The notes under the pieces were generated by a model. The model did no database searches and was not told the origin of the DNA. It saw only the letters and a list, made by a program, of their open reading frames with translations. A stretch of 64,000 nt of DNA from the IMG/VR virus record IMGVR_UViG_3300047560_000604, positions 69,467-133,466 of that record. One strand, 5' to 3'. Shown here piece after piece: positions 33,254 to 52,014 of the stretch (the first letter of the stretch is position 1; each line of letters begins with the position of its first letter). The position numbers and the translations under genes are program-made. This DNA is from a virus.

Positions 33254-33633
33254 TGTCACAATCAACTGTACAAATCCTATTACCACAGACTACAGTTACG
33301 TCATTAACTCGTGGCGATAAAAAGCCAGCTGCCGCTTATTATCTAGCTAATGCGGATTTGCAAACAGTTTCTTGGAGTGTTACTGGTATGACTGGTACTG
33401 TCACCATTCAAGCTAGTCTAGCAACAGACCCAGTATTAACGAATGACAACGACTGGTTTAATGTATTCACATTCAATGCCAGCGCTGTAGTATCTTTGCC
33501 CAATCAACCATTACCTGCAACACAAGCAGGTACCCATTCTGGATTTCATAACTTGCCAGGTAACTTTATCTGGCTGAGAGCAGTAGTTACTGGTAGCTTG
33601 GGTGTAGTTCAATATATCAAGGTTAGCTACTAA
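33253..33633 (+). CDS. Hypothetical beta-rich late protein
   Basis: Coupled ORF; alternating hydrophobic pattern. Confidence 0.7.
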   Translation: MSQSTVQILLPQTTVTSLTRGDKKPAAAYYLANADLQTVSWSVTGMTGTVTIQASLATDPVLTNDNDWFNVFTFNASAVVSLPNQPLPATQAGTHSGFHNLPGNFIWLRAVVTGSLGVVQYIKVSY

Positions 33634-36600
33634 TGAGTTTAATTGTCATCATGCCAGGGGGTTTTCACCCGTTTCACGCAGGACATATGTCATTGTACAA
33701 CAGTGCAAAAGAAGCATTTCCTGGTGCTGAATTATATGTAGCTGCTACAAATGATATGAGTGAAAGACCATTTCCTTTTAGCATCAAAGAAAAATTAGCT
33801 AAGTTAGCTGGAGTACAACCCGGGCATTTTATACAAGTTAAGAGCCCGTTCCAAGCCAAAGAAATTACTCAGAATTTTAATCCTGAACAAGACGTATTAG
33901 TATTTGTTCGTAGTGAAAAAGATAAGAACGAAAGTCCTAAACCTGGTGGCATGAAGAAGGATGGAAGTCCCGCATATTTTCAGCCGTTAGAAGGTAACAA
34001 AGATAAGTTACAGCCATTCGGTAAACATGCTTACTTTGCATATTTACCTACAGTGAAGTTTGGTCCTGGTATTACTAGTGCTACTGAAATTCGCAACGCA
34101 TGGCCAACCTTAAATGAAAAACGCAAACTAGCAATGGTTATGAGTTTGTATCCTGTTACTCAACAGAAGCCGCAACTTGCAAAGAATGTAGTTAAGTTAT
34201 TAGATGCTGGTATGAGTGGTCAGCCACTGAGTGAATCACTAGATGGAAAAAACATAGATAAAGCAAATCAAGTAGCATCTATGCTTTATGCAGTCAAACC
34301 AGAACTATTCAAACGATTCGGTGATGAATATGTCATGGATAAAATTGAACAATGCGTAGCTCAATGCGGTCCAGATAGTGCATCTGCTCAAATTGCTACA
34401 GAAGTTGTGCGTAGTCTAATAGATGAATTAAAAGAAGCAATTCAGCAACCACAAAAACAGGACGACAGTGGTGGTTACATGAAGTATTTTGCTAAACCCA
34501 AAGAACCTAAACCAACCCCAGAAAAAAGATTTAACAGTTGGGATGAATACGAACAATCAAAGGACGTTAAACAACCACAGCCTGAATTAGAAGAGGCACG
34601 TATCATGGATCGTGATGCGTTGATTAATGCTTTCTATGTCTCACCGGAAGGCAGGAAGCATAGAGTTGCAGAAAAGATTCCATACTATTTGCTAGACAAG
34701 TTAGTTGGTCTACTGACTAAGAAATACAATATCACTATGAACGATATTGAAGTTCGTCCTGCCGATCAATCACAATATCGTAGAAGCACACAATTAGACG
34801 AATTCGCTCCAGACGAAGGTGGTGGATCACGTAAGTTTATTCCTTGGACAGAGTTTATTGAACAACTAAAACAAATCTTACACAAAGACTTTAACTGTGT
34901 AGAAAACATTGTTAAGTCTACAATCAAAGCACGATTCGTTCCACACGATCCAATGGAGTTTGGTCCAACAATGCTTTACTCATACTATGAGACTAGAGCA
35001 GGTGGCCGCAACAAGGGTGCTATTAGCACACGCGGTAGTATTCAAGTCGGTAAGTATTTTACAGGTGGATTGTTTGGGCAAGAAGAAAAACGACTACTTA
35101 CAAGTTTCAATTTGTTAAAAGGTCATCCTTTTGAGCGTCACTTTGATTTGACATTTGACAACATCTATAAGATTGCTAATATCATTCAAGGCAATACTGA
35201 AGGTGCTTTAGAGTTTCAGCCACAACAAAAAGTAAACGAATTCGCCCCGAGTCCAGAGTTTAATGGCGGTGACGATGAAGGTGATAAGGCTCCTAACTAT
35301 GCCTATGATGATGGTATGGCAAAAGGTTTTGGATTGAGCGATAACATGACTCTTGATAGAGCAATGAAAATCAATAGTTGGTCTGGTGAGCATGTTCCAC
35401 ATTTCATTGCTGGTTTTATCGAAGGTCGTCGTGCTAAGATTCGCATGGATAAGAAACAACATGGAATTGTTGGCAAGTTAATGAAAGATGGCAGCATCAA
35501 GCAAAAGCAACTAGACGAATTTGCTCCAAATGGATTTGATGGCTTTGAAGATGACAACAGAGTTCCAATGCACTTTGTCGTTGAAAAAGAATTGTATAAC
35601 CGTCGTAGTAAGTGGAAGAAGTCTAGAGATGCTGATGGCGTTATCTTATTTGCTACTAAACAGGAAGCAATTCAAGCCGCAGAAAAGTTCAACAAGCTAG
35701 ATCCAAATCGTGAATTTGCTTACGGTGGAACACAGATGGTTCATGTAGATGATGACTTAGATGAAAACACATCCGGTGTTAGCGTTAAGAAATGGGCTAA
35801 TCAAGTTCGCAAAGAGCATGGCGCGGATGTTAAGTTTAGAAATCGCAAAGAAGGCGGCGGAGCAGTTGACAGTGTAATTGCTAAGAATAGTCAAGGTGAA
35901 ACAGTGGGTGTGTATAATCGCAAGACTGGTTACCCCACTGTTTACGAACCAAAGCAAGGTTTAGAAGAAAATTTTGACGCACAAGAGTTTCACCGTCATA
36001 TGGAAAAACTCAGAGCAAGAGAAGAATTGCGTAAGACTGATCCAATGAAAGCATTGGTGGGAGACTTGATTGATAAAGAGAACGAAAAGCGTACTCCTGC
36101 TAAAAAGCCGGAAGACGATTCAATCAACATCAACGATCCTCGTCATCCTAGCTATGGTGCTTTACATAACCCATTAAGTGATTTGAATGAAGGTTCTGAA
36201 ATTGCACAGCCAGGCCAACTTGTTTCAATTATTCAAGCTCCAAGAATCTTAGACTTGTTACCAGGTGAGACATTTGAAGTTCGTTCTAGTAATGAACAGG
36301 GTGTAACATTAAAGCATGGTATGGGAACAAAGTTTGACAACGTTATATTCCCACACGGGACATACAAGATTGTAAAAGCGCAAGGTATGAAAGAAAACAT
36401 CGGACGTAGAGGTATTCTTAAAGGCTTAGGAGCAGCAATGGCCGCAGGTGCAGCAGGTAAAGCAAGTGCAATCGCGGGAGCTTTTCCAACACCAAGTCAT
36501 CAAGCTGCAATGTACAAAGCAGCCGCTGATAGTAACAGAGCACAAGCTCGTGCTGATGCTGCCGAGAAAGCAAAAGCTGATGCTGAACGTTTACAAAAGA

Positions 36601-36941
36601 ACACTGACCAAGTTGACAAAGAGCAACGAATCAACCATCACAAGTTAGACGAATTCGCTCCTGGCAACGGAGATGATGGTTTACCATACGCTGAGTATCA
36701 AGTATATCAATGTAACCCTGAAGACCAATTTGATTGGATAGGTGGTCCATTATATCAAACAGATAGTATGGGTATGGCACACAAGTATGCTTATGAAAAG
36801 TATGTAAAGCATCGTCCAAAAGCGTTTATGGTTTGGCAAGAACGTAGTCAAGGCAGTCGTGGTAATTACGGTGTCAAAGGTCAATCAGACCATAACGAAG
36901 ATGATATGACCGAAAACAGTGATTATCTAGACGAAAAATAA
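33633..36941 (+). CDS. HIGH-motif nucleotidyltransferase domain fused to a modular polyprotein
   Basis: IMPGGFHPFHAGH and TSATEIR in the first ~160 aa; four (L/V)(D/N)EFAP junctions and other LxE sites downstream. Confidence 0.8.
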   Translation: MSLIVIMPGGFHPFHAGHMSLYNSAKEAFPGAELYVAATNDMSERPFPFSIKEKLAKLAGVQPGHFIQVKSPFQAKEITQNFNPEQDVLVFVRSEKDKNESPKPGGMKKDGSPAYFQPLEGNKDKLQPFGKHAYFAYLPTVKFGPGITSATEIRNAWPTLNEKRKLAMVMSLYPVTQQKPQLAKNVVKLLDAGMSGQPLSESLDGKNIDKANQVASMLYAVKPELFKRFGDEYVMDKIEQCVAQCGPDSASAQIATEVVRSLIDELKEAIQQPQKQDDSGGYMKYFAKPKEPKPTPEKRFNSWDEYEQSKDVKQPQPELEEARIMDRDALINAFYVSPEGRKHRVAEKIPYYLLDKLVGLLTKKYNITMNDIEVRPADQSQYRRSTQLDEFAPDEGGGSRKFIPWTEFIEQLKQILHKDFNCVENIVKSTIKARFVPHDPMEFGPTMLYSYYETRAGGRNKGAISTRGSIQVGKYFTGGLFGQEEKRLLTSFNLLKGHPFERHFDLTFDNIYKIANIIQGNTEGALEFQPQQKVNEFAPSPEFNGGDDEGDKAPNYAYDDGMAKGFGLSDNMTLDRAMKINSWSGEHVPHFIAGFIEGRRAKIRMDKKQHGIVGKLMKDGSIKQKQLDEFAPNGFDGFEDDNRVPMHFVVEKELYNRRSKWKKSRDADGVILFATKQEAIQAAEKFNKLDPNREFAYGGTQMVHVDDDLDENTSGVSVKKWANQVRKEHGADVKFRNRKEGGGAVDSVIAKNSQGETVGVYNRKTGYPTVYEPKQGLEENFDAQEFHRHMEKLRAREELRKTDPMKALVGDLIDKENEKRTPAKKPEDDSININDPRHPSYGALHNPLSDLNEGSEIAQPGQLVSIIQAPRILDLLPGETFEVRSSNEQGVTLKHGMGTKFDNVIFPHGTYKIVKAQGMKENIGRRGILKGLGAAMAAGAAGKASAIAGAFPTPSHQAAMYKAAADSNRAQARADAAEKAKADAERLQKNTDQVDKEQRINHHKLDEFAPGNGDDGLPYAEYQVYQCNPEDQFDWIGGPLYQTDSMGMAHKYAYEKYVKHRPKAFMVWQERSQGSRGNYGVKGQSDHNEDDMTENSDYLDEK

Positions 36942-36991
36942 TTTGACCCCCTCTTTACTGTGTAAATATCTTTATCTTTAAAGAGGACCAA

Positions 36992-37978
36992 ATGGCAACA
37001 AAGAAAACAACACCAAGAGAAACTGCAAAAGTTACCGGTAAACCAACTGGTAAGAAAACAGTTCCAGTAGAAAAAGTTCAGGAAATCGCTGAACAAGCAC
37101 AACAAGACAAACAGGCTGTACCGGGCCCCGGACAAGTTCAAGTTGACGTAGATTATTTACGTACTACACGTGTGCATATCGCTATGCCATGCTACGGTGG
37201 CATGTTGACAGAATCTACATTCATGTCATTTATCAAATGGGCTAACACTGCTCGTCAATTGGGGATCGATTGGACATTAGAAACAATGGTCAATGAATCA
37301 CTCATCTCACGTGCTCGTAACACACTAACAGCTAAGTTCTTAGAGCAACCTGAATCAACTCACCTGTTCTTTGTTGACGCTGACATTGGTTGGGAACCAT
37401 GGCACTTGTTAGTTCTATTGAATCGTAACGTTGACGTTATCGGTGGACTATACCCAATGAAGACTATGCCAATCAAGTGGGTAGTTAACGGCTTTGAAGG
37501 CGCAGAAGAAGGCGCTGACGGATTCCAAGAAGTATCTAAAGCAGGTACTGGTTTCTTGTTGATGAAGCGTCATGTGTTTGAGAAGATGAACAGTCACCCA
37601 GCAGTTAAACCATACAAAAACGATATCGGTTTAGATCCAAAATACGACAAACACTTGAAGACTTACTTCGACACCGCAGTGCGTCAAGGTCGTTACTACT
37701 CAGAAGACTGGACATTCTGTGAAAACTGGCGTGATTTAGGTGGTAAGATTTACGTTGATAAACGTGTCTTATTGCGTCACTCAGGTGCTTATGTATTCTG
37801 TATGGAAAATCAAGACCATCTATTGAATACAATCGGACCTATGTACTTAGAAGAAGTTAAAAAGCGTCAAAATGCAGCATCAGCAAATATGCAACCTGTA
37901 CCAGACTTAGCTACTCCCGCTAATCCACAAGCAAAAGCACCCGCAAAGAAAGCGGCTGCTAAGAAGAAAACAGCGTAA
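36992..37978 (+). CDS. GT-A (family 2-like) glycosyltransferase with basic termini
   Basis: HIAMPCYGG, NESLISRARN, THLFFVDADIGW (DxD), GTGFLLMKR, YYSEDWTFC. Confidence 0.7.
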   Translation: MATKKTTPRETAKVTGKPTGKKTVPVEKVQEIAEQAQQDKQAVPGPGQVQVDVDYLRTTRVHIAMPCYGGMLTESTFMSFIKWANTARQLGIDWTLETMVNESLISRARNTLTAKFLEQPESTHLFFVDADIGWEPWHLLVLLNRNVDVIGGLYPMKTMPIKWVVNGFEGAEEGADGFQEVSKAGTGFLLMKRHVFEKMNSHPAVKPYKNDIGLDPKYDKHLKTYFDTAVRQGRYYSEDWTFCENWRDLGGKIYVDKRVLLRHSGAYVFCMENQDHLLNTIGPMYLEEVKKRQNAASANMQPVPDLATPANPQAKAPAKKAAAKKKTA

Positions 37979-37999
37979 TATACAAAACGCTTAAAAATG

Positions 38000-38023
38000 A
38001 GGCTGTCAATGACAGCCTTTTTT
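38000..38023 (+). terminator. Intrinsic terminator
   Basis: AGGCTGTC-AAT-GACAGCCT followed by TTTTT. Confidence 0.85.
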
Positions 38024-38035
38024 CATAAATACTCT

Positions 38036-39115
38036 ATGAACCTTACAGAATTACACAATTTCAATCTAGGTGACGCAATTTACTTTCATTCGGATCTAAA
38101 CCAAGCAATATTTGACGGTGACCGCATGAACTCCGACGTCCGTCAACAACTATTATTGATAGCAGAAGATTTTATTGAACATCTAGGAATCAACCAGTTA
38201 GATGTTGCTGACATTACTATATCCGGATCTAACGCCGCATATACTTATACAAGACATTCCGATATAGACTTACATATCTTAGTTGATATGAGTAAGTTTG
38301 AAAATGACGATGTATACCGTGAGTTGTTTGACGCTAAAAAAGTCGTATATAATGACCAACATGACATTTACATCAACGATTATGAAGTAGAGTTGTATGT
38401 ACAAGACACAAACACCCCGGTGGTTAGCTTGGGTGAATACTCAGTAATGAACGATCATTGGCTTAGACTTCCCAGAAAACGTAGAGCACACTTTGACCAA
38501 GCAGCTACAAAACTAAAATACGATAAGATTTACAAATTAGCTGAATTTGCATATAGAAGCAATGATATGGGTAAGATTCAAAACGTACTCAAAACTTTGA
38601 AGAAATATCGTCAAGCTGGTTTAGATTTGAACGGTGAATTCGGCCCAGAAAACTTAGCATACAAGGCAATCAAGCACAAAAATATCATAAGCAAGTTGTA
38701 TGATAAGTTGAACAGTTTACACAGTGATAGATTAAGCCTACCTGAATCTAAATTATTAGATAAGCCAGAAATGTCTATCAGTCAACTAGCACATAAACAT
38801 AAAGTAGACAAGAAACATATTCAAGACCAGTTGAGTAAAGGCATCAAAATTGAAATGGAACATACATCTAAGTATGATGTTGCGAAAGAAATTGCTTTGG
38901 ATCATTTAGCTGAGGATCCTAATTATTACACGAAGTTAGACAAAGTTGGTTTAGAAGAATGCTCCGGGTACATTCCAAGCGAAAAAGAAAAGAATGATCC
39001 TCGTTGGGAACGTGCATTAAGTGTTGATGTAGGACCTAACGCAATCAAAAAGAACGCAAAAGCATTTGGGTTTAAAGTAACTCGTGCAGGTATTCCCCCA
39101 TTACTGAGAAAGTAA
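38036..39115 (+). CDS. Pol-beta-superfamily nucleotidyltransferase with C-terminal DUF5661-like module
   Basis: ISGSNAAYTYTRHSDIDLH (GS..DxD) and VELYVQD; C-terminal KGIKIEMEHT...AKEIALDHL.E.P.YYTKL. Start moved to ATG 38036, 4 nt after ATAAATA 38025-38031. Confidence 0.75.
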   Translation: MNLTELHNFNLGDAIYFHSDLNQAIFDGDRMNSDVRQQLLLIAEDFIEHLGINQLDVADITISGSNAAYTYTRHSDIDLHILVDMSKFENDDVYRELFDAKKVVYNDQHDIYINDYEVELYVQDTNTPVVSLGEYSVMNDHWLRLPRKRRAHFDQAATKLKYDKIYKLAEFAYRSNDMGKIQNVLKTLKKYRQAGLDLNGEFGPENLAYKAIKHKNIISKLYDKLNSLHSDRLSLPESKLLDKPEMSISQLAHKHKVDKKHIQDQLSKGIKIEMEHTSKYDVAKEIALDHLAEDPNYYTKLDKVGLEECSGYIPSEKEKNDPRWERALSVDVGPNAIKKNAKAFGFKVTRAGIPPLLRK

Positions 39116-39187
39116 GAAGATGGCAAAGACGGATTTACCTTGACAATATTCTAAAAGCGATAAATACATAATACACGGAAATTATGT

Positions 39188-42100
39188 ATGAAAATCAACA
39201 ATCTTTTAGAAAATATCACCCCAACTTCAAATCCTGACCAAGGTCAAGGTGGACAAGCTCCTAAATTCAGACGCTCAGATAAAGTCCTAGAAGACGATAA
39301 AATTGAGGAAACTACTGCAGGTGCGATTGCTAGTGTTGCTAGTCCTGTAGGAAAAGTTCAACGTAGAGGTAAAGGCTCTATGCTGCAGGGTATTAAAACT
39401 AGTAGTAAGTTTCCTAACTCAAAAACAGTCAAAGAAGCAGGTATCGGTAGTGTGACAGTTGACATGCCAATCAGACCAGATGGTCATCAACAAGCATTAG
39501 ATTTTCACAACAACGAAATAGATGACTTGGCTATGCAAGCTGAGCCTGAATTCAAAGCATGGATTGAATCAGCAGAAGAACAATTAGTAGCAGCAGAATA
39601 TGCTCGTAAAGACACTCATCATTTAGCCAAAGTATTGAGTGCTCAACAAGTTAAAAAGTTTGGCAGTAGGACTCTAGGTCAACAACTAGGTAGCGTGGTA
39701 ACGGGTTATAGTTATGCTTCTTACACACGAGAAATTAAAGCCATCATGGATGGCCCAGTGAGAACTGCAGGTAATATCATTGCTCGTAGAACAGAATTAG
39801 AAAACAATATTGAGTTTGTAAAACAAACATGGGGCAGAATGTCCCGAGACGAGCGCCAACAATGGGCAGCTAGTGTTGGTATGACGTATCAACAATTAGA
39901 GCATGTTGTTAGAACTGGTAAAATGCCAGAGCCACAAGCTGCTCAAGACACACAAGAAATTGAAGAAGGTTGGAAAGAAGATAGTCAGGCACATGAGGAA
40001 TTCCTACAACATGCACGTGAACAACTTAGTGCGGCGAATCCAAGAGAAAGAATGGCTCTAGCGGTTCGTTTATCTAACTTAGAAAAGAAGCACTTCGGTG
40101 ACGAAGTAGGGCAAGGATTTGATGCTAATACTGGAGTTAGTGCTACTAGTAATGGAATGAGTGCGGGAATTCAAGCTATACTATCATCAGTTGTAGCAGG
40201 TGATCAACCTAATAAACTAAACGCGGCACCATTTGGTAGTGCACCTGGATACAACAAACCAGGACCAGCAGTAGAATTACGTCCACAAGCATCATTACAG
40301 CCTAATAAGCCACTAAAGAGCATCTACCATCTAGATGGAACTGATTTTATGGACGATGAAGTTGAACCAGGTGAACAACAAAAAGCACAAGATATTCTTA
40401 ACTTGTATTACAATGCTGACGAAAAAACAAAAGCAGAATTAGAAGCTAGTCTTGTGAAGAACACAGGCTTGCCTTTAGAAGAAATCCTAGAGCGCATTAA
40501 AGAAATCGCTAGCGGTGACTTTTCTCGCATGAACGACATAGCAGAAGGTAATCAGTTCCCAGAGCCAAGAAAGCCTCTTTCAGGTCAAATCCCTAGCAAG
40601 AGCGAAGTTCTAGGTAAAGATGGTTTAATCTATCACTGGCGAGACCCACGTGCTAAACAAGTAGTTCAAGGTACAAACCTAAAGACTACAGGAAAAGCAG
40701 ACTTGGGTAATAACCCAATGAATCTACCTGCAGGTTACGGTGATGTTGTTCAACCTCAAGGCATGAAAGAAGCTAAGAAAGCTAACACTAAAACTGCTAG
40801 AAAAGAGTTTGGTAAGCGTCCACCTGCTAAACTAAGCGATAAAGAACAAGAAAAGAAAAAATCTGAATCAGATAGATTGTGGGATATGTTACAAGCACAT
40901 ATTGCACAAGCCGAGAAAGAGAAAGTCAATGAAGTAGATCCTCACAACTATGATAGTGATGAAGATTATTATGATGCAGTTGAAGCAGATGATTTAAATC
41001 TTGACCAGTTCACCGGTGATTGGACAATTCCTGATGAAATCGCAGTTTTGACAAATAGATTAAGATATGCAAAAAGTCAATATGAACGTGACTATATTAA
41101 AAATAGAATCAAGCGTTATGAGGACATCTACTACGGTGATGACGACTTAGAAGAAGCCAGAGTTGGTAATCGCATGAGCGACATTAGTGTTGGCTCACCA
41201 AAGATTGTTAACTACAAAGGCAAATCAGTAGGTGAAGTTGGTATTGACCACGAACCAAGTCCAGGTAATGGCCCTTATTATTGGAAACATTATCTAACTG
41301 GTAAGTACATGGTTGGATATGATACTAAACAAGAAGCATTAGCAGATTTGAAATATCTTGTGATGCAAAATGAAGGTAGTGAATTAGAAGAAGGCGTCTG
41401 GGGAGATACAGCTAAACTAGTTGGCATTCCAGCAGTAGCAGGCGCATTAGCAGTTGGTGCTGGCCATTTAGATAAACAACAACCACATGTTGAAGTTGGT
41501 GGACAAAGTGCTAAGATTGTTCGTGCTGATACAACAAAGATGCCACGTGATGCTATGTTACTAAAAGGTAAAGATGGTAAGATGTATCATGTGTGGATGA
41601 CTAGAGGTACAGGTTCAGGACACACATTACTTGCTAGTCCGGCAGAAGAAGTTAAAGAAAATATCGGCGGTCGTCATCGTAGTGATGGTACTGCTGGTGA
41701 AAGAAGTGGTGGATTCAAATACCCTGGTTACAAGCCTGGCATGAGCGATAGAGAACTAGCAAAGTTGCTAGACAAAGGCGCGGAAAAGCGTAGACAAGCT
41801 GAAAAACAAAAACAGCAAGGTGTGGCGGAAGGCTCGGACGACAACGAACCGTTTGATTACGAAGAATGGAAGGCTTCTACTGTGAAACCTCGCAAGCCTC
41901 GTGGACACAAAGAGGCAGAATTTATGATTCAACAACAGAAAGAAATAAATCGTAAACGCAAAGAGCAAGAGCAAGGTGTTGCGAAAGACGAATCTCAACC
42001 AACAAAGTATCGTGCTACAGTTGAGTATGGTCCTACTGCGGCAGACGCACATTTCGTCACTGTAACAGCAAACTCAACAGAAGAAGCAGAAGCTAAAGTT

Positions 42101-43087: not shown

Positions 43088-44556
43088 TGAAAATCAATAA
43101 CTTACTAGAATCTAAAAAACTTCCAGGACAATTCGGGGCACAAATTATGTCTCCTGAAGAGTTCGTTGCTGCTGACGAAGCAGGCATTGATGTCGATCCT
43201 AACAAGATCGACCAAGAACATGAAGAAGTAGCAGAAGATAAACCACAACGTGATACAAATCGTTTGTGGCAAATGATTACTGACTATGAGCGTAGAGCTA
43301 AAAATTCAAGTAGTGATATTCGTAAGCAACACTACATGAAGATGGCTGACGAATTACGTGCTAAGTTACCTACAAATGAAGCAACTGAACTGCCGGCTCC
43401 ACAGAAAGAATTCGGAGATCAAGAGTTCCAAGACTACATGAAACGTATAGTTGGCACACCTGATATCGATAAGAAAACAGGCTTGCCAAAGAAAGCTAAA
43501 GATAAGATTAGTAAGAAGACCGGTGAAGTTAAGCCGGGTGCTGAAAAGTATATCAGTGGTAAGACTAAATCTGACAAGTTCAAGATGCCTTACGTTCATC
43601 GTTCGAGCGTAGTAACTTACTACGATGCTGATGGTAAAAGATTCAGAGAAGAAGACGTTATTAACGCATTAAAAGTTCGTCCCAAATCGTTGTTAAAGCA
43701 AAACGAAAAGATGAAGCATTCAAACGGAGAGCTAGAACAGTTCTTCAACATTGGCTTCGCTGCATTGACAGGTATCGCTGTTGATGAATCTACAGGGAAA
43801 CTAATCATTGTTAACACATGTCCTGGTGCTGGTTCATGTAAAGTTGATTGCTTTGCTATGAAAGGTGGTAAGGTTCAGTTTAAGAATGCTTGGCTAAGTG
43901 ACGGTAAGATTCTTACATATCTATTGAATGATCCAAACGGATTCTTCAACCAATTATCAAAAGAGATTAGCAAAGAAGAAAAACTAGGCGACAAAGGTGG
44001 TTACACTGTGACTATACGTTGGCATGACGCTGGCGATTTCTTTAGCCCAGAATATTTAGACATGGCATTGAAGATTGCTGAAACACATCCGGGTGTTAAG
44101 TTCTATGCTTATACTAAGATGGCTAATGCAGCCTTAGCTAATAAGCCAGGTAACTTTATTATCAACTGGTCAGAAGGTGCTCACACTTCTCAAGAGAAAC
44201 AAGTTAAGCAAGATGACCCTGAACTAGAGAAGACAAAGAACAGTCGTATCGTTCCAGAGAAGTTATTCTATGACTTGTTGAAGAAAGATGCTAAGGGTAA
44301 CTTAGATAAAGAAGGTGCTGATGCTGAAGGGGCTGGAGGACGTTGGGTAATGCGTGATCCTACTGCAACTAAAGAGTTGAAGCAACGTTTAGCTGATTAC
44401 TACGGTATCAGTGCTAATAGTATTCTAAACTATGACGAGTATACAAGTAAGCCAAAAGTTGCTGGCATGAAGTACAACGTAATTGTTGCGCCAGGTGAGG
44501 GTGACATTAGTGCTAACGATCCTAACGTATTAGCTACACTATTATTGAAGCACTAA
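43087..44556 (+). CDS. GP88-like Cys-cluster protein with capsid-targeting-like leader
   Basis: MKINNLLE start (same as upstream gene); TCPGAGSCKVDCFAMKG, IRWHDAGDF, FYAYTK. Confidence 0.65.
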   Translation: MKINNLLESKKLPGQFGAQIMSPEEFVAADEAGIDVDPNKIDQEHEEVAEDKPQRDTNRLWQMITDYERRAKNSSSDIRKQHYMKMADELRAKLPTNEATELPAPQKEFGDQEFQDYMKRIVGTPDIDKKTGLPKKAKDKISKKTGEVKPGAEKYISGKTKSDKFKMPYVHRSSVVTYYDADGKRFREEDVINALKVRPKSLLKQNEKMKHSNGELEQFFNIGFAALTGIAVDESTGKLIIVNTCPGAGSCKVDCFAMKGGKVQFKNAWLSDGKILTYLLNDPNGFFNQLSKEISKEEKLGDKGGYTVTIRWHDAGDFFSPEYLDMALKIAETHPGVKFYAYTKMANAALANKPGNFIINWSEGAHTSQEKQVKQDDPELEKTKNSRIVPEKLFYDLLKKDAKGNLDKEGADAEGAGGRWVMRDPTATKELKQRLADYYGISANSILNYDEYTSKPKVAGMKYNVIVAPGEGDISANDPNVLATLLLKH

Positions 44557-44613
44557 ATATATGGATAGAACAGTTTTTGAATTCTATTTGAAGTATAAGG
44601 GAAACCCACCAAA

Positions 44614-45054
44614 ATGTTGTCAGACAATTTAAAAGTATTATTAGCAAGCACCCAAAGTTTTGCTATCAAGTCACAAAACTTTCACTGGAACGTTGAAGGT
44701 AGTGATTTCCCTCAGTATCACGAATTCTTTGATACATTATACGGAGATGTAGCTGGAACAATTGACAAGATTGCTGAGTACATTAGAATCTTAGGTCACT
44801 ATACACCTGGCAGCTTAACTCGCTATGCTGAACTATCAGTTATTCAAGACCAAACAAAGATCCCACGTGCTGAATTGATGTTCACTGAATCACTGCAAGA
44901 TTGTGAAACAATGATTCAATTAGTAACACAAATGTTCGATGAGGCAGCAAATGAAAAACAACATGGTATAGAAAACTACATGGCTGAGTTACAAGATTTG
45001 TATGCTAAGAAAGCGTGGTTCATTCGTTCGATATTAAAGAAAGCACGTGAGTAA
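44614..45054 (+). CDS. dps: Dps / ferritin-like DNA protection protein
   Basis: QNFHWNVEGSDFPQYHEFFD..Y...DKIAEYIRILG ferroxidase motif; TAAATA at 44554-44559. Confidence 0.9.
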   Translation: MLSDNLKVLLASTQSFAIKSQNFHWNVEGSDFPQYHEFFDTLYGDVAGTIDKIAEYIRILGHYTPGSLTRYAELSVIQDQTKIPRAELMFTESLQDCETMIQLVTQMFDEAANEKQHGIENYMAELQDLYAKKAWFIRSILKKARE

Positions 45055-47048
45055 TGAGAGCATCTCAGTTTACAGTCGAAAATACATTAGATGAAGCCCC
45101 AATGAATCCTACCGCTTTTGCTCAATCAATTGAGCAAGGTGAAAAGAAGGGTGTCTTAGTTGGGTACGAGTTTGAAGTATGTATTCCTCGTGCTACTATC
45201 AGTAACACGGGTGATAACTCAAAGGGGATCCTTGATAAAATTGAAATCTACATGGAAGAATTCTTAGAATCAACAAACACTCAGGATATTTCAGTAGAAG
45301 AAATGTCTAAGTTGTTCCCTTTCAAGAAGCCAATCAAAGGTTATGATAGTCTCAGTGATTATTATACAAAGGATCAAACTAATAGATTGCAAAAAGGCAT
45401 TGAACTATTCAAAGAATTCCCAGAAGATATAAGAGCAAAGTTCATTCCTATCACTAAGCAGAGATTGAAAAGTTATTCTAATAAAAAAGCAGATCCCAAA
45501 TCAATGTCATATCAAATTGCGTTTCTAGGTAGATTTGGTAGAGACGTATATTCGAGCACTAGAGGTGAAATTGAATCCAAGGCGCATGATTTAATGGAGC
45601 TTTTGGATGGGAACGATTATTACTATGAAATGTTTGGCACACTAATCCCCCATACTGCATATGCAAACATGTTGAAATATTTCAATATCGATCCGGCGAG
45701 GGTGTGGAGTGCGATGCAAGACTATGTGTATGATGAAGAAGATGATGATGGATATTATGCTGCTGCTTCTGGCGTATTGAAGCCTGCTCTTTCTAAGACA
45801 ATGGGATCAGAAGTAATAATATTCAGCGACTACCACGAAGATACAAAAGATTTAGACAAGTGGTACATAGAACCAGATGGTAGCTTATCAGCCGATGATG
45901 AAGATGATACTACTGCTGAGATAGTTAGTCCCCCATTGCCAGCAATGAAAGCTATAGATGCATTGAAGAAATTCTATTCAATGGCATCAAGTTTAAATCT
46001 ATATACTAACAACACTACAGGCTTACACATAAATGTAAGTATTCCTGACACACTAGATGTAACAAAGTTAGCAGTGTTCTTGGGTGATGATTATGTGTTA
46101 CAACAATATAACCGCGAAAATAACGGTTACGCAAAAGGAACAATGCAACGACTAAACTATGCAATGGTTAATAAATTAGATTCATACGCTCGTTCACCTA
46201 TGCAAACTACTAACAGTAGAAGTAAAAAGCCAGGGGTATTTGGTCAACGTAAAACATCAAATCTACCTAACTACAAGATGCTGAATGATATTATTAAAAA
46301 TCACACTGAAGGTCATACAGCTAGTATTAGTTACAATGGTAAGTACATTTCATTTAGACATGCAGGCGGTGACTATTTAAGTGACTACAATAAGGTGTAC
46401 AACACAGTTGGTCGCTTTGTTCGTGCGATGATTATTGCTAGTGATCCAAACTTATATAAACGTGAGTACCAAGAAAAATTAGCCAAGATTGCTACTATGG
46501 GAGATCAACTACGCAACGTGCGTTTTGGTGACACTAATAAAATGTTAACTATTATTCAGAAACATGGACTTCCTGTTATATCTGCACCAGTTGCGATTGT
46601 TAATCCTAAGTTTCCTATCGAATCTGTAATCAAGAGTTTTGGTAGAAATGAACAATGGTTCCCTGGTCCTAAAGCTGGTGCTGTAAAAACAAGACCTTCA
46701 ACTGAAGCTGAGAAGCAATTATTAATTAGCAGGATTCTTAACGCAGACACCAAACAGTTAGTTAATCAGGCTACTAGTTTTGTAACTGTAGATATTATTC
46801 CAAAGACTCCACAAATGGTAGGCATGATATTAGCTAATCCCGGTAACATGCTCAGAACAGTAGTGCAGCCAGTGTTCGGTAGAGGTAACAACGCACAAGC
46901 GTTCTTCACGACTTCAACCTCTACTTACCCATTGAATAGTCCAATCGCACAAGCTGCGATGAAAGCTATACTACAAGATAAGTGGGGTGCGATTAAGCCC
47001 GGTGCTAAAACGAAACCAAATGCCTCAAGGTTCTTAGACAAGCCATGA
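45054..47048 (+). CDS. Putative amidoligase (COOH-NH2 ligase type 2) 1
   Basis: GYEFE, IEPDGSL, EIVSPP, TTGLHINVS, ISFRHAGG; leader MRASQFTVE. Confidence 0.8.
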   Translation: MRASQFTVENTLDEAPMNPTAFAQSIEQGEKKGVLVGYEFEVCIPRATISNTGDNSKGILDKIEIYMEEFLESTNTQDISVEEMSKLFPFKKPIKGYDSLSDYYTKDQTNRLQKGIELFKEFPEDIRAKFIPITKQRLKSYSNKKADPKSMSYQIAFLGRFGRDVYSSTRGEIESKAHDLMELLDGNDYYYEMFGTLIPHTAYANMLKYFNIDPARVWSAMQDYVYDEEDDDGYYAAASGVLKPALSKTMGSEVIIFSDYHEDTKDLDKWYIEPDGSLSADDEDDTTAEIVSPPLPAMKAIDALKKFYSMASSLNLYTNNTTGLHINVSIPDTLDVTKLAVFLGDDYVLQQYNRENNGYAKGTMQRLNYAMVNKLDSYARSPMQTTNSRSKKPGVFGQRKTSNLPNYKMLNDIIKNHTEGHTASISYNGKYISFRHAGGDYLSDYNKVYNTVGRFVRAMIIASDPNLYKREYQEKLAKIATMGDQLRNVRFGDTNKMLTIIQKHGLPVISAPVAIVNPKFPIESVIKSFGRNEQWFPGPKAGAVKTRPSTEAEKQLLISRILNADTKQLVNQATSFVTVDIIPKTPQMVGMILANPGNMLRTVVQPVFGRGNNAQAFFTTSTSTYPLNSPIAQAAMKAILQDKWGAIKPGAKTKPNASRFLDKP

Positions 47049-47485
47049 AGATAACTGACATCCTAACAGAAGCTGGTGAACAACCTATATACTATTTTGC
47101 ATACGGTATGCTGACTGATCCTGAGATTATGGATGGTATTCCATTAGTTGGTAAAGCAGAACTACCTAACTTTGAATTTGAAATGTTCATGTATGCAAAT
47201 GTACTCCCCACACCAAGAAGTAAAGTTTATGGAACTCTCTGGGAAGTTAACAGAGAAGTTATTAGTAGATTGGATCAAATTGAAGGCTACCCTCAGTTGT
47301 ATGACAGAAAGATGGTTCCGGTCATATCTAATGGTAAACGATATGAAGCGTTCGTGTACACACTAACACCAGAATCAAGAGAAGAACTTGAAGGTTCTGA
47401 ACCCAGCAAAAGTTACATAAATAAACTAATAAGGGGATATAAAAACGCAGGTGTTCCCCTAGAACAATTACAAAGAACACTATGA
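47045..47485 (+). CDS. Gamma-glutamylcyclotransferase (GGCT/AIG2-like)
   Basis: YYFAYGML, VYGTLWEV, LDQIEGYP.LY; leader MKITDILTE. Confidence 0.85.
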   Translation: MKITDILTEAGEQPIYYFAYGMLTDPEIMDGIPLVGKAELPNFEFEMFMYANVLPTPRSKVYGTLWEVNREVISRLDQIEGYPQLYDRKMVPVISNGKRYEAFVYTLTPESREELEGSEPSKSYINKLIRGYKNAGVPLEQLQRTL

Positions 47486-49398
47486 GAGCAATAGATTTTT
47501 TAGTAGAACAGCAGAGACTTGATGAAGTTAACATGAGCCCACGCTCATTGAAGATGCTTGTTAAGAGCATCAATGCCACTGCTGGTATGGAATTTGAAAT
47601 GGGTGTTCCTAATATTGAAGATCCAGACGAATACGAATACGAAAACGACTACGATTCAGATGAACGTGCTAGTAGTTGGGGTAACATTGAAGATTTCTTT
47701 ATGGGCGGCGACGGCAATAATAGTCGTAGTGACGTTCGTTCAATGATTGAATCCATGCAAGAACATTACAATGAGTGGTATTTTGAGCAAGAAGAAGAAG
47801 CATGGCGAGATGAAGGTCAAGAATTCTTAAAAGACTATATTTTAGAAAATGATGAGTTTGACGAAGATGATGCAGAAGAACAAGCTAAACAAGAAATTCG
47901 TGAAGCAAACCCTGAACTACCAGAAGAATCACATGACTTTGAAGAATTAGTAAGAGTTAGAAAAGACGAGATATTTGAAGAATTCGTACAAGACGAATGG
48001 GACAATGACGGTCGTATATATGATAGAGCCAAGGATGAGTTTAGAGATAATTATAGCGTCCCGGATGAAGGTGATTGGCTGAGTGACAATTACGAATGGA
48101 TGACTGACGTATACCATTCGTTTGGTAATAGACATGATGTATTCTGGCCCTATCAAACTCGTTCAGGTGGTGAAGGTGATTTAGGTGATCTAGCTGACGA
48201 ATTTAGTAGAGCAATCGGCAGAGGTGTGAACACATATGCAGGTCACGGTGGTCCTAGAGAAGCAGGTGAATACACGATTGAAACTGACCCTAGTATTGAT
48301 ACTGATGATAGCGGCGATGCCGGATTAGAATTTGTTAGTCCACCGTTACCATTAACTGAATTAGTAGCCGACCTAGCTACAGTAGTTAAGTGGGCTAATG
48401 AGTATGGTTGTTATACAAACGATTCAACTGGGTTGCATATGAGTGTTAGTGTCCCTAATTATTCTATTGATAAGTTAGACTATGTTAAGTTAGCATTGTT
48501 ATTAGGTGACGAGTATGTGTTACAACAGTTCGGTCGTCAATCAAATAACTATTGCCGTAGTGCTGTAAGCAAAGTTAAAGGGAAGCAACTATCACAAGAA
48601 GAATCTAAAAACATTCTAGACCAAATGAAGAACGGTTTATCGTTGGCAGCAAGTAAATTGATTCACACTGGCTTTACGGACAAGTATACAAGTATCAACA
48701 CTAAAAATGGTTATGTAGAGTTTAGAAGTCCCGGTGGTGACTGGTTGAATGAAGATTTAGATAAGCTAACAAATACATTGTATCGTTTTGTTGTTGCATT
48801 GGATGCAGCATGTGACCCACAAAAGTACAAAGAAGACTACTATAAGAAGTTATACAAGATGTTGAATCCTGATGATTCAACTGATGATTATGGTAAGATG
48901 ATTAATGATTTTAGTCAATATGCTACAGCAGTTGGTGGAGCCCCACAAAAAGTTGTTGCTAATTTCCGTAGATTAGCATTAGCAACATTGAAACAATCAC
49001 AGGGCAAAGAATCTGGTCAATGGTGGTTTAACGTTGCTATCAATGGTCAACGAATTGAACTTGTTGCTGACAGCCCTGAACATGCATGGGAAGAAGCAGT
49101 AAAAGATAACCCACACTGGGGCAGAATGAACAAGAATGATGCTAAGATTACTAGATTGCGCCCATTTGTAGATACTAGACCAGCAAATGGTACAACAGCA
49201 CAAGCAACAGCAGGGGAACCTCAACCGTTAAGTCAACCTCAACAGCAACAATATCAAATCTATCGCAAAGATTCAGGAACCACTATTACATCATTCATGG
49301 CTGCAGACGATGAGGATGCAATGCAAAGACTAGGGCACCATTTAGCATACGTGCCCTCACAAGCACACAACTTGTATGGTGTACGTAGGGCACAATAA
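47482..49398 (+). CDS. Putative amidoligase (COOH-NH2 ligase type 2) 2
   Basis: GMEFE, IETDPSI, GLEFVSPP, STGLHMSVS, VEFRSPGG; leader MRAIDFLVE. Confidence 0.8.
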   Translation: MRAIDFLVEQQRLDEVNMSPRSLKMLVKSINATAGMEFEMGVPNIEDPDEYEYENDYDSDERASSWGNIEDFFMGGDGNNSRSDVRSMIESMQEHYNEWYFEQEEEAWRDEGQEFLKDYILENDEFDEDDAEEQAKQEIREANPELPEESHDFEELVRVRKDEIFEEFVQDEWDNDGRIYDRAKDEFRDNYSVPDEGDWLSDNYEWMTDVYHSFGNRHDVFWPYQTRSGGEGDLGDLADEFSRAIGRGVNTYAGHGGPREAGEYTIETDPSIDTDDSGDAGLEFVSPPLPLTELVADLATVVKWANEYGCYTNDSTGLHMSVSVPNYSIDKLDYVKLALLLGDEYVLQQFGRQSNNYCRSAVSKVKGKQLSQEESKNILDQMKNGLSLAASKLIHTGFTDKYTSINTKNGYVEFRSPGGDWLNEDLDKLTNTLYRFVVALDAACDPQKYKEDYYKKLYKMLNPDDSTDDYGKMINDFSQYATAVGGAPQKVVANFRRLALATLKQSQGKESGQWWFNVAINGQRIELVADSPEHAWEEAVKDNPHWGRMNKNDAKITRLRPFVDTRPANGTTAQATAGEPQPLSQPQQQQYQIYRKDSGTTITSFMAADDEDAMQRLGHHLAYVPSQAHNLYGVRRAQ

Positions 49399-49883
49399 TG
49401 AGAGCAACTGAATTTATCTCTGAAGTATTTGAACCCAATAAACAAAACTGGGAATGGGCTCGCCTTGGAAATAGCGAAGTAACCGCATATTTCAAAGTCG
49501 GTAAAAGAGATTATATTTGGCAAGCATTTACACGAAGTAGTAATCCCAAGAAGTGGGAAATACAATTTCGTTTAATGAGAGATTATGAAAACGATCCCGA
49601 AGAATTAGACTTGTTTGGTAAGACTGGTACAGGTAATTCAGCGGAAGTAATGTCAACTGCTGTGGATATTACAAGAGCATTCTTAAAAGAATACGGACTT
49701 GATAGAGTAGAAGAAATTACATTCAACGCAAAAGAAGATAGTCGCATTGGATTATATGCTAAGATGATTAAAAGACTATTACCCGATTGGGACTTGTATA
49801 GTAAAAAAGACCCAGTTGATGGAATGGTATTCTCTCTTACTGACCGTAGAGCGTATGACAAGCCTGAGAACAAGATTACATAA
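49398..49883 (+). CDS. Hypothetical protein with capsid-targeting-like leader
   Basis: Leader MRATEFISE; no family recognised. Confidence 0.75.
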   Translation: MRATEFISEVFEPNKQNWEWARLGNSEVTAYFKVGKRDYIWQAFTRSSNPKKWEIQFRLMRDYENDPEELDLFGKTGTGNSAEVMSTAVDITRAFLKEYGLDRVEEITFNAKEDSRIGLYAKMIKRLLPDWDLYSKKDPVDGMVFSLTDRRAYDKPENKIT

Positions 49884-49887
49884 GAAC

Positions 49888-49981
49888 ATGCCTTAGGACC
49901 GTGGTAGTTACTACCATGAAGGCGTCGGGCGGCTGCTGCCCTAGAACAAGCGATTCGCTACCGCAAGTTCTTTAAGTGAGC
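49888..49981. ncRNA. Candidate compact structured RNA with possible pseudoknot
   Basis: GC-rich intergenic stretch with stems ATGCCTT/AAGGCGT, TGGTAG/CTACCA, GGGCGG/CTGCCC, AGAAC/GTTCT, GCG/CGC; loop TTCGC can pair with GTGAG. Confidence 0.5.
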
Positions 49982-50009
49982 TTTTTCCTTTTATAGATAA
50001 ATATATATT

Positions 50010-50600
50010 ATGCGAGCCGAATCATTTATCCAAGAATCCGCTGTTAGAGAACTAGCAGACAAACTTCCAACCCTCAAAAGAACTGACTATGATGCAATCG
50101 ACCGTTTAATGAAACGAGTTGGTATTAAACATAATGTATCTTCTAAAAAGTTGCATAATCTATTTGTCAGTAAATACGGACATAGTCCAGATCACTGGGT
50201 AAAGCGCATCAAAAGTCGTTTGGGTGAGACCGACGTAGATCCTACAGACGATAAATCTGCACAGATTGACAAATTTATTAAGTGGTCTTACAACGCATTG
50301 AACATACAAGAGCCCCTACCAAAATTCCATTTTAGTAGAGATACAGAAGAAGCACAGGATCAGCATCGTACTGGTTCACATGACAGCCAGGGCAATATTA
50401 CAGTTTACATTGAGAATCGTAACTTAGTTGATATCTTCCGCACAATATTCCATGAGCTTGTGCATCACAGACAAGACCAATTAAACATGATTAAAGATGG
50501 TGACAGTTATCCAGGTAGTCCTATCGAAGCAATGGCAGATATGATGGCTGGAAAGTACATAAAGATTTATGGCAAACAACATCCCGAAATCTTCCAATAA
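50010..50600 (+). CDS. Zincin-like metallopeptidase with capsid-targeting-like leader
   Basis: RTIFHELVHHRQ (HExxH), downstream IEAMA; leader MRAESFIQE; ATAAATA 49997-50003. Confidence 0.7.
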   Translation: MRAESFIQESAVRELADKLPTLKRTDYDAIDRLMKRVGIKHNVSSKKLHNLFVSKYGHSPDHWVKRIKSRLGETDVDPTDDKSAQIDKFIKWSYNALNIQEPLPKFHFSRDTEEAQDQHRTGSHDSQGNITVYIENRNLVDIFRTIFHELVHHRQDQLNMIKDGDSYPGSPIEAMADMMAGKYIKIYGKQHPEIFQ

Positions 50601-50740
50601 AGTACAACAAAAGTTAAAAGAAGTCCCTGACGATTTGTTCGAGAAGGGTAAAGACGACATTGATTTTAAAAGAGAAGTGATTAAAAGGCAGTATAATAAG
50701 GATCCTTTAAGTATCTTTACACTAATAAAGAGAATGATTA

Positions 50741-51415
50741 ATGAGAGCAAATGAATTCGTTACCGAAGACATGTCACGTAGAGGATTTCTAGGTGCGCTA
50801 GGTGCAGGTGCAATGGCTGCATCAGGGGTTGCTCAAGCTAAAGTTAATCCAGTTGCTAACAATCCTAAAGTAGAATTGTTAATGAAGTGGGCTAAGAAGT
50901 TTATTACTAACCCATCGGAGTTAGCGGCATTCATGGCACAATGCGCCCACGAAAGCGACAACTTTGCAACAATGGAAGAATATGGTTCACCTGAACGTTT
51001 TGCTAAGAAGTACGACATTCAACACAATCCAGACAAAGCAAAACAACTAGGCAATACTAATCCAGGCGATGGCATCAAGTATCGTGGTCGTGGATATATT
51101 CAATTGACTGGTAAGTACAACTATCAAAAAGCAGGTGAGTGGGTATCCAAGTATATCAATCATCCAGTTGACTTTGTTAAGCAGCCTGATTTAGTTGCAA
51201 CACCCACTGCGGCTGCGTTGAGTAGCATTTGGTATTGGATGACATTCGTTCACCCTAAGGCAAAGAATTTCAGTAACACCAAACAAGTTACTAAGCACAT
51301 CAACCCTGGGTTGAAGGGTCAAAAGAATCGTGAACAGAAAGCTAAAGATTGGCAAGCTGCATTGAATGTTAAACCTATTAAGCCGGGTAAGTCATTTAAG
51401 GTAGCTTCAAGATGA
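50741..51415 (+). CDS. Second GH19 lysin, with capsid-targeting-like leader plus Tat-like signal
   Basis: AAFMAQCAHES, DGIKYRGRGYIQLTGKYNY, WYW, TKHINPG; N-terminus MRANEFVTE-DMSRRGFLGALGAGAMAASGVAQA. Confidence 0.85.
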   Translation: MRANEFVTEDMSRRGFLGALGAGAMAASGVAQAKVNPVANNPKVELLMKWAKKFITNPSELAAFMAQCAHESDNFATMEEYGSPERFAKKYDIQHNPDKAKQLGNTNPGDGIKYRGRGYIQLTGKYNYQKAGEWVSKYINHPVDFVKQPDLVATPTAAALSSIWYWMTFVHPKAKNFSNTKQVTKHINPGLKGQKNREQKAKDWQAALNVKPIKPGKSFKVASR

Positions 51416-51948
51416 GAGCATTTGAACTAACTAAGAATAAATGGGAACTGCTTATATCTAATGCAGATAAGCATGAAGCTGGTTCTGAATTAGTTAACTT
51501 AGTTAAACATGCCTATTCCGTAACACCAAAAGGTTCGATGATCCAAAGTTTGCGTGATGTTATTCCTAGTGATTGGAATGTTATTGATTGGGACCAAGAT
51601 CCTGACATTGACGCATGTGTGTTCTATCGTAAGAATAGACCGAGTGAAGATTGGGTGGGAATTAAAATACAAGGTGTCGGGCATGATGGCACTAGACAAA
51701 GCAAAGACAAAGCAATCGGTAAAGTTTTGGAACTGTTACAGAAGCAAGGTGTTTGGATTGAATCCTCAGATGCCATGCGTCATGTCTTACATAAGTTAAA
51801 TGCACCAAATGTTAAGAATGAACAGTTCTTACAAAATCTGTTCGGTGATCCAAACCTGCACATGGTTCAAGATGACACATATCGTAGAACTTTACAAAAC
51901 GGTCAAGAGATTCAAGAAACCGTATTCGGTCATCCTAAGCTAAAATAA
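51412..51948 (+). CDS. Hypothetical protein (MRAFEL... start)
   Basis: ATGA-coupled; shares ATGAGAGCA start with other island genes. Confidence 0.75.
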   Translation: MRAFELTKNKWELLISNADKHEAGSELVNLVKHAYSVTPKGSMIQSLRDVIPSDWNVIDWDQDPDIDACVFYRKNRPSEDWVGIKIQGVGHDGTRQSKDKAIGKVLELLQKQGVWIESSDAMRHVLHKLNAPNVKNEQFLQNLFGDPNLHMVQDDTYRRTLQNGQEIQETVFGHPKLK

Positions 51949-51961
51949 TTACGTAAAAAGT

Positions 51962-51990
51962 TTGACTTCTCTACGCAGTTCATATATACT
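51962..51990 (+). promoter_or_regulatory. sigma70-type promoter for the replication genes
   Basis: TTGACT, 17 nt, TATACT; AGGAGA RBS before ATG 52015. Confidence 0.8.
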
Positions 51991-52014
51991 AACTACTTCT
52001 TTAGGAGATTATAT

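Follow-up and report, generated by a model that had tools for sequence, protein, structure and literature searches.

Why do consecutive genes for unrelated proteins in a phage genome start with nearly the same short peptide, each time ending in glutamate? This question is raised by a 64-kb window of the IMG/VR virus record IMGVR_UViG_3300047560_000604 (the window being the whole stretch of 64,000 nucleotides analysed here, i.e., the last 64 kb of the 133,466-bp record; positions preceded by "contig" refer to the whole record and all others to the window). A preliminary description of an island located at 33633-51948 had proposed that late enzymes encoded there carry a leader similar to the capsid-targeting sequence (CTS) of bacteriophage T4, ending in a site for the head protease. 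All the indirect tests that we ran favour this core idea, i.e., enrichment of the leader, selection at the peptide level, modularity among orthologs, a joint with 98% Glu, the presence of S77 proteases in relatives, detection in the virions of Agrobacterium phage Atu_ph07 and late-type promoter boxes. We consider it probable that the shared N-terminus is a T4-type capsid-targeting propeptide removed by the prohead protease.

The leaders previously quoted were all found at the gene starts indicated (Table 1), and the identical start ATGAGAGCA was indeed present in five island genes. The leaders can be described by the pattern M-[KR]-x3-[LFIMV]-x(1,2)-E (regular expression ^M[KR].{3}[LFIMV].{1,2}E, applied to the N-termini of open reading frames, ORFs), hereafter called the tag. 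The tag is present in 8 of the 10 real genes within 39188-51948, the exceptions being the gene encoding a Dps protein, whose lack of leader was confirmed and extends to the 7 full-length orthologs recovered, and the gene at 51412, which exhibits the first half only. In all eight full leaders of the island, the final Glu is preceded, two residues earlier, by L, I, V or T. At the scale of the 133-kb contig, 13 of the 188 ORFs start with the tag, compared to a mean of 0.88 matches (maximum 5) in 2000 runs in which residues 2-31 of the same ORFs were shuffled; the leader is thus enriched over shuffled N-termini, a comparison that the preliminary description had named as a possible refutation. A looser expression led to 10 matches versus 0.32 expected from all internal positions.

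The limits of the island had to be revised in both directions. The leader is present in the 39188-51948 segment and absent from 33633-39115, and "island" is too narrow a term because the tag also heads genes located elsewhere in the contig: those encoding a HD_4 (RelA/SpoT-type) hydrolase, a 517-aa coiled-coil protein adjoining the terminase, two small proteins behind ATAAATA boxes, a 264-aa protein and a 243-aa protein matching a PHROG "virion structural protein". The tag is therefore, as far as can be read from the sequences, a system extending over the whole genome and lineage, in which scaffold-like and structural-looking proteins take part as well as the joints of polyproteins described below. 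The tagged HD_4 protein, a small protein encoded at contig 7528-8073 (locus L005) and starting with MRIQEITE, is a candidate for a packaged alarmone hydrolase.

An all-against-all BLAST of the tagged proteins detected similarity beyond the leader only in the amidoligase pair 45054/47482. The peptide MRATEFISE is common to two unrelated genes (window 49398 and contig 24755) that exhibit three synonymous codon differences, including TCT versus AGC, and the two MKINNLLE leaders (39188 and 43087) differ synonymously at 4 of 8 codons. The same leader peptide being written with synonymous codons, selection acts on the peptide, and these differences argue against a cassette operating at the RNA level. 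Such a cassette, promoting for instance the initiation of translation on leaderless late mRNAs and spread by recombination without any role for the peptide, would fit with the first 9 nt being the same in five island genes and with the location of several tagged genes, devoid of Shine-Dalgarno sequence, 4-6 nt behind an ATAAATA box. We nevertheless regard it as very improbable, since identical peptides are produced from different codons, the amino-acid pattern holds across clusters of less than 50% identity, most island genes are translationally coupled within their operon and not promoter-proximal, and the joint motif recurs deep inside ORFs.

The contig is about 38% complete according to CheckV, with nearly all genes on the + strand. 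It encodes a long tail sheath, terminase, UvsX, a gp32-type single-stranded DNA-binding protein, a clamp loader, a DsbA-like protein and a family-B DNA polymerase, together with a Clp ATPase and DnaJ. The DNA polymerase shares 46-49% identity with its counterparts in Sinorhizobium phage Phosso, Vibrio phage 2.275.O and Agrobacterium phage Atu_ph07, and about 47 contig proteins have homologs, in partial synteny, in the first 250 kb of Atu_ph07. The polymerase identity and these homologs indicate that the source is a fragment of an uncultured T4-core jumbo myovirus from the Atu_ph07/Rak2-like assemblage. The island is syntenic in the relative G002 (360,683 bp with terminal repeats, rated 100% complete), whose proteins share a median of 54% amino-acid identity with those of the contig (106 proteins).

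A megablast of 43000-52000 against cultured phages gave no match, and no relatives were recovered when a single amidoligase was used as query for related loci; an alignment of orthologs of the gamma-glutamyl(amine) cyclotransferase encoded at 47045 (GGACT/AIG2, hereafter GGCT) succeeded instead and retrieved 80 IMG/VR loci. In the 40 closest loci, the tag is present in 96 of 1092 ORFs versus 4.6 in shuffles, and in the 40 more distant ones in 12 of 1107 ORFs versus 4.1. In about 65 of the 71 metagenomic GGCT orthologs, the conserved core is immediately preceded by such a leader; the five most distant orthologs start at the core without any leader. GGCT orthologs that are 90% identical carry different leader types.

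The architecture of the tag is best visible in amidoligases. An exhaustive HMMER search with the amidoligase 45054 led to 1797 homologs, of which the best 150 representatives (50% identity clusters) were used for a sequence logo. Among the 106 representatives whose catalytic core lies at most 90 residues from the start, 100 carry an extension of 8-54 residues (mostly 12-17) and 6 begin at the core Met. The extension starts with M, R/K (70%), x, x, E/D/Q/N (94%), F/L/I (88%) and ends with L/V/I (96%), D/N/T/S, E (98%), V/A (94%), A/P/R/S, followed by M-N/S-P, which places L/V/I at position -5, E at -3 and V/A at -2 from the core Met. One of the G002 amidoligase paralogs starts exactly at M-S-P and its neighbour has a 20-residue extension before the same motif. 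Because the extension precedes the ancestral start Met in amidoligases, including this paralog pair, the tag can be described as a two-part module added in front of an older start codon and composed of a putative address-like half and a [L/I]-x-E joint.

A S77 protease is present in the relatives G002, G003 and G004 and corresponds to gp204 in Atu_ph07. In G002, it is encoded at 174783-175421, between portal and scaffold (E 1.8e-28). The G002 scaffold contains 24 [LIV]-x-E sites in 368 residues, i.e., 6.5% versus 1.3% genome-wide (a 5-fold enrichment), and the G002 capsid protein exhibits L-A-E just before the conserved mature N-terminus, with two tagged genes directly after it. The only Pfam Gp23 (PF07068) match in the contig corresponds to a mini-ORF of 112 aa (contig 47883-48221, locus L001) that mimics a capsid-protein segment, and we rejected it as a capsid gene. 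Its start is 56% identical to residues 76-114 of the Atu_ph07 major capsid protein, a conserved N-terminal segment of the mature protein, and it sits in an array of small genes with a common C-terminal tail.

The virion proteome of Atu_ph07 has been published (PMC6102473, Table S5). In this phage, the tag takes the form M-R/K-W-x-Q-L-x-E, which fits 13 annotated starts in the first 250 kb; 12 of these 13 tagged proteins (gp43 and gp53-63) are in the virion list, against a background of 96/325 (Fisher p = 2.6e-6). The list also includes, with 14 peptides, the homolog of the amidoligase 45054 (gp196; PMC6102473), encoded two genes from the portal, and gp113, the homolog of the protein encoded at window 13022, is a virion protein detected with 11 peptides and 62% coverage (PMC6102473). 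The annotated start of gp113 (85061) appears to be too far downstream (record 84393-85148, locus L010): translated from 85148, the ORF has the N-terminus MKTLQDYLTE, matching the start of the window 13022 homolog. The predicted cuts in Atu_ph07 would fall after Glu-8 in gp43 and gp53-63, after L-T-E-13 in gp196 and after L-M-E in the capsid protein.

Several observations weigh against the capsid-targeting interpretation. The contig encodes neither a S77 protease (no match to PF03420) nor a full capsid gene, as can be explained by its being a fragment, only about 38% complete. Of the 12 tagged Atu_ph07 virion proteins, eleven (gp53-63) are tandem paralogs, and the association is no longer significant when they are counted once (p = 0.18), so that the link to virions rests on few independent families. 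Moreover, the Atu_ph07 virions were only purified with polyethylene glycol, and the list includes a ribonucleotide reductase, a RecA-like protein and the terminase (PMC6102473). The G002 orthologs of the zincin-like protein, of GGCT and of one amidoligase have no tag, and tagging is therefore optional. The twin-arginine translocation (Tat)-type signal present behind the leader of the GH19 protein (see below) would compete with prohead loading if it were functional in the producing cell. Two further points, the nature of the residue following the presumed cut and the constant company of amidoligases, also speak against this interpretation, each pointing to a different explanation.

Cleavage by the zincin of the island itself would also suit the hydrophobic P1' residue (V/A/F). 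The tag and the joints could then be processing sites for the zincin-like peptidase (50010) instead of the prohead protease, and packaging may occur by another route. The domain with its invariant HExxH...E motif travels with these genes, nucleotidyltransferase-zincin-amidoligase giants are present in relatives, a hydrophobic P1' is usual for zincins, and passages of the survey of polyvalent proteins predict their autoprocessing by such domains (Iyer et al., 2017). We nonetheless find this explanation unlikely: the strict conservation of Glu at P1 (98%) with L/V/I at P3 follows the rule of T4-type head proteases, the capsid propeptide of G002 ends in the same motif, which is also enriched in the scaffold of this relative, and T4 has the same kind of tag without any zincin. 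The assignment of 50010 to the metallopeptidases, made in the preliminary description, is based on a motif and on fold matches. The HExxH...E motif is invariant in 5 orthologs and the C-terminal half of the AlphaFold model (mean predicted local distance difference test score, pLDDT, 81) resembles zincin domains, with middling VIA-align Z scores over 101-110 aligned residues (ERAP1 8.5, SPRTN 7.5, Wss1 6.8). The Foldseek search of the model against the Protein Data Bank (PDB) gave only E-values >0.2, a PDB sequence search gave nothing and no match was detected in Pfam. Orthologs of this protein exist with the leader, without it, or fused into polyproteins.

Amidoligases are present in every relative checked (the Pfam family in 4 of 5 records and, in G002, two paralogs detected by BLAST), and this co-occurrence cannot separate the tag from a tag read by amidoligases. 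The leader could be a tag that a co-encoded enzyme recognizes or modifies (e.g., an amidoligase acting on the conserved Glu), or a tag for a Clp-type chaperone, analogous to the leaders of ribosomally synthesized and post-translationally modified peptides and devoid of any address to the capsid. Besides the amidoligases of all relatives examined, the Clp ATPase and DnaJ encoded by the phage would suit this explanation. It seems quite improbable to us, as the amidoligases are themselves tagged, the tag is present on scaffold-like and virion-detected proteins, the joint is also found inside polyproteins exactly where modules are swapped, and T4 has a near-identical tag and no amidoligase.

The distribution of promoter motifs bears on the timing of expression. 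The motif ATAAATA is strand-biased in the contig, with 37 copies on the + strand versus 6 on the - strand; 27 of them lie between genes, usually at 17-25 nt upstream of a structural gene. It had been claimed that late-type motifs feed the island, and such a box was indeed found before both tagged units (Table 1), the second unit being preceded by a 126-nt hairpin-rich spacer. Likewise, in agreement with the reported lack of a consensus sigma70 promoter inside the island, the segment 33000-52300 shows no enrichment of sigma70-like sites (41 versus 51 expected). The best intergenic site is located just past the island (Table 1) and, from its position, marks the putative end of the late block and start of the unit encoding the DsbA-like protein and the DNA polymerase. 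The tagged genes may thus be assigned to late expression, by likeness to the T4 box TATAAATA.

Over the whole contig (e.g., window 38025, 49997 and 27410; contig 24743, 25886, 29046 and 60840), the distance between ATAAATA and ATG is bimodal, being either 17-25 nt with a Shine-Dalgarno sequence or 4-7 nt without it. The short class includes the terminase gene and several tagged genes, and would yield leaderless or nearly leaderless late mRNAs.

If the tag is a capsid-targeting propeptide, its first half, M-[RK]-x-x-[ED]-[FLI], would dock the late protein, once synthesized, to the prohead's scaffolding core, and its end, [LVI]-x-E, would be cut by the S77 (gp21-type) prohead protease, so that the mature enzyme is released within the head. 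The cargo, transported in the virion and probably leaving it with the DNA, would consist of two amidoligases, the GGACT cyclotransferase, the zincin-like protein, the GH19 muramidase, the GP88-family protein and, from elsewhere in the contig, the HD_4 hydrolase. We infer the docking, the cleavage, the packaging in this phage, the ejection and the role of the enzymes in the host. The proposal that the cargo is injected before any phage gene is expressed is drawn purely by analogy with T4.

The joint may have a second use. In the 1102-aa protein encoded at 33633, four [LV]-[DN]-E-F-A-P joints (nt 34794, 35232, 35511 and 36645) separate unrelated segments, and fusions of GGCT with amidoligase, of GGCT with GH19 and of nucleotidyltransferase with zincin and amidoligase are present in relatives. 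The same [LV]-[DN]-E joint would thus stitch modules into polyproteins, and one tag could therefore load several modules. A related joint, I-D-E-F-A-P, is also present in P0177, an unrelated metagenomic amidoligase giant/polyprotein. In the contig and the first 250 kb of Atu_ph07, L-D-E-F-A-P was found only in the 1102-aa protein, apart from one chance-like match in Atu_ph07. We also considered Q-L-D-E-F as a beta-clamp-binding motif and dropped this reading, since the consensus requires Leu where Glu stands.

In the GH19 protein (50741), the leader is immediately followed by a twin-arginine-type signal (nt 50771-50839, aa 11-33), recognized by inspection from the motif S-R-R-G-F-L, a moderately hydrophobic Gly/Ala h-region and an A-x-A site. 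This segment fits a predicted export signal. The pairing of leader and Tat-like segment is kept in the L019 ortholog, and in L022, L014, L049 and L050 the hydrophobic stretch is internal and located directly after a x-E joint; in single genes as in the polyproteins of relatives, the Tat-type or Gly/Ala-rich segment of GH19 proteins is always directly behind such a joint. The succession of leader and Tat-type segment would fit an unmasking of the latter by cleavage. We put forward, as a rather doubtful extension, that the head-protease cut unmasks N-termini that re-address the cargo in the next host (GH19 being sent to the membrane or periplasm after ejection), and that the tagged amidoligase-GGACT pair, found as a fusion in many relatives, works after injection and before the onset of phage transcription as a toolkit for gamma-glutamyl ligation to host proteins or small amines and for the corresponding removal. 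A second Tat-like/hydrophobic segment is present in the 1102-aa polyprotein (about aa 918-945, nt 36384-36470), where R-R-G-I-L and a Gly/Ala-rich stretch directly follow M-K-E, in an arrangement that parallels that of the GH19 protein. A GH19 paralog encoded in the tail/baseplate region (19167-19790) is 31% identical to 50741. As it is located there and has neither leader nor hydrophobic segment, it is probably a tail-associated or lysis enzyme.

Table 1. Genes of the island, one further tagged gene and promoter motifs (window positions; the arrow in joints marks the presumed cut).
Feature	Position	Strand	Remarks
Tagged gene, MKSLRHYLTE (10 residues, as T4 CTS)	13022..13627	+	Tail/structural region, behind ATAAATA box
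1102-aa protein	33633..36941	+	N-terminal NMNAT-like nucleotidyltransferase (Pfam CTP_transf_like), then modules; no N-terminal leader
328-aa protein, no leader, no family match	36992..37978	+	86% identical to G002 ortholog
Pol-beta-type nucleotidyltransferase + DUF5661	37997..39115	+	Pfam
Late-type box ATAAATA	39160..39166	+	21 nt upstream of 39188; start of first tagged operon 39188-49883
1299-aa protein, leader MKINNLLE	39188..43087	+	C-terminal region: DUF3008-like segment + DUF6321
489-aa GP88-family protein, leader MKINNLLE	43087..44556	+	Pfam
Dps/ferritin-like protein, no leader	44614..45054	+	Pfam; same operon as tagged genes
Amidoligase 1	45054..47048	+	Leader MRASQFTVE, joint L-D-E↓A-P, ancestral start M-N-P; Pfam Amidoligase_2
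Gamma-glutamyl(amine) cyclotransferase, GGACT/AIG2 (GGCT)	47045..47485	+	Leader MKITDILTE directly before conserved core
Amidoligase 2, paralog of 45054	47482..49398	+	Leader MRAIDFLVE, joint L-D-E↓V-N, then M-S-P
161-aa protein, weak DUF6934 match	49398..49883	+	Leader MRATEFISE
Late-type box ATAAATA	49997..50003	+	6 nt before ATG of 50010; start of second tagged unit
196-aa protein, leader MRAESFIQE	50010..50600	+	N-terminal helix-turn-helix-like bundle, C-terminal zincin-like domain
GH19 muramidase/chitinase-family protein	50741..51415	+	Leader MRANEFVTE, then Tat-type signal
178-aa protein, only N-terminal half of tag (MRAFEL)	51412..51948	+	Orthologs start MRITEV, MKINEV or MKIHELLYE
Intergenic sigma70-like promoter, TTGACT, 17 nt, TATACT	51962..51990	+	Best intergenic site, just past island

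The families of the toolkit named in the preliminary description were recovered with Pfam, i.e., Amidoligase_2, GGACT/AIG2, GH19, GP88 and ferritin/Dps. A tblastn search with the GP88-like protein gave only four weak and uninformative matches. The C-terminal region of the 1299-aa protein (39188) matches the N-terminal pieces of PHROG "virion structural protein" families. The true start of the nucleotidyltransferase gene at 37997 is probably located at 38036 (MNLTEL...), 4 nt behind an ATAAATA box (38025); its orthologs start with MKLTEL, MNIHEL or MNINEL, the same N-terminal half-motif, and are fused into giant polyproteins that contain zincin and amidoligase domains. The product of 36992-37978 is the most conserved protein of the block among those without known function, its 86% identity with the G002 ortholog comparing with a median of 54% for shared proteins, and its identity amounts to 64-79% in four further related loci.

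Should the tag function as it does in T4, uncultured freshwater jumbo phages forming a large clade, together with the cultured Atu_ph07, would fill their capsids with a variable set of enzymes, and the tag would provide a simple sequence rule to predict the packaged proteome of such phages from metagenomes. To our knowledge, the amidoligase, GGACT and HD_4 alarmone-type hydrolase families have never been linked to virions. The bipartite form, an address followed by a [LVI]-x-E↓[VA] joint before the old start codon, would illustrate the way in which ordinary genes become cargo and are linked into polyproteins. Moreover, the tag might be used as a handle for loading foreign proteins into the heads of jumbo phages. 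The CTS as a general device of the T4 family is already in print (PMC9026906), and the present case is therefore an extension of a known idea and not a new principle.

In T4, the CTS (MKTYQEFIAE) comprises 10 residues, enough for packaging; targeting involves residues 4 and 7, and processing involves residues 8 and 10. It is present on IPI, IPII and IPIII, which are internal proteins, and is removed by the gp21 prohead protease; the propeptides lost by Alt and the capsid proteins measure 7 to 65 residues, and T4 relatives encode other proteins with CTS-like starts. The tags described here resemble it in being short N-terminal peptides (8-10 residues) on unrelated proteins, with a core E-F-I-x-E and a [LI]-x-E end, in combining a putative targeting and a putative processing half, in their predicted late expression and in the possibility of an enzyme as cargo (Alt in T4). 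They differ in being one residue shorter, in belonging to a distant jumbo lineage, and in being often split into an N-terminal motif and a joint, with between them a linker whose variable length reaches about 45 residues. Moreover, the cargo mostly corresponds to large enzymes (amidoligase, GGACT, GH19, zincin, HD), whereas that of T4 consists of small basic proteins, and the joint would also build polyproteins.

The gp21-related proteases all cut after Glu, those of the phiKZ group preferring S/A/G-x-E or A-x-E. As proposed here, many head-internal proteins of the phiKZ-like giants (phiKZ, 201phi2-1 and SPN3US), including enzymes, are processed after Glu by a gp21-related protease, from propeptides with several sites. 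Their propeptides often exceed 100 residues, compared to 8-20 residues here, and their S/A/G-x-E motif does not describe the amidoligase joints, 96% of which have L/V/I at P3, like T4. For the tagged GH19 protein, a precedent exists in the internal core proteins of the T7 gp16 type, in which the head stores a peptidoglycan-cutting enzyme that enters the envelope upon infection. The fold is GH19 here and not that of a lytic transglycosylase, with a Tat-like or Gly/Ala-rich segment right behind the presumed cut.

The polyvalent proteins, in the sections of the survey that describe them, are multi-domain chains of effectors that comprise zincin, muramidase and nucleotidyltransferase modules and whose packaging and joint delivery with the DNA were predicted (Iyer et al., 2017), as we suggest for the present cargo. 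Amidoligases are not mentioned in this survey, and its passages on prohead and capsid considered here describe neither an N-terminal capsid tag nor [LVI]-x-E joints (Iyer et al., 2017). Most cargo genes of the phage studied here, in contrast, are separate, encode a single domain and have their own tag, whereas the 1102-aa and 1299-aa proteins and the fused relatives fit the definition of polyvalent proteins, i.e., 2 to 15 effector domains in the context of virion genes.

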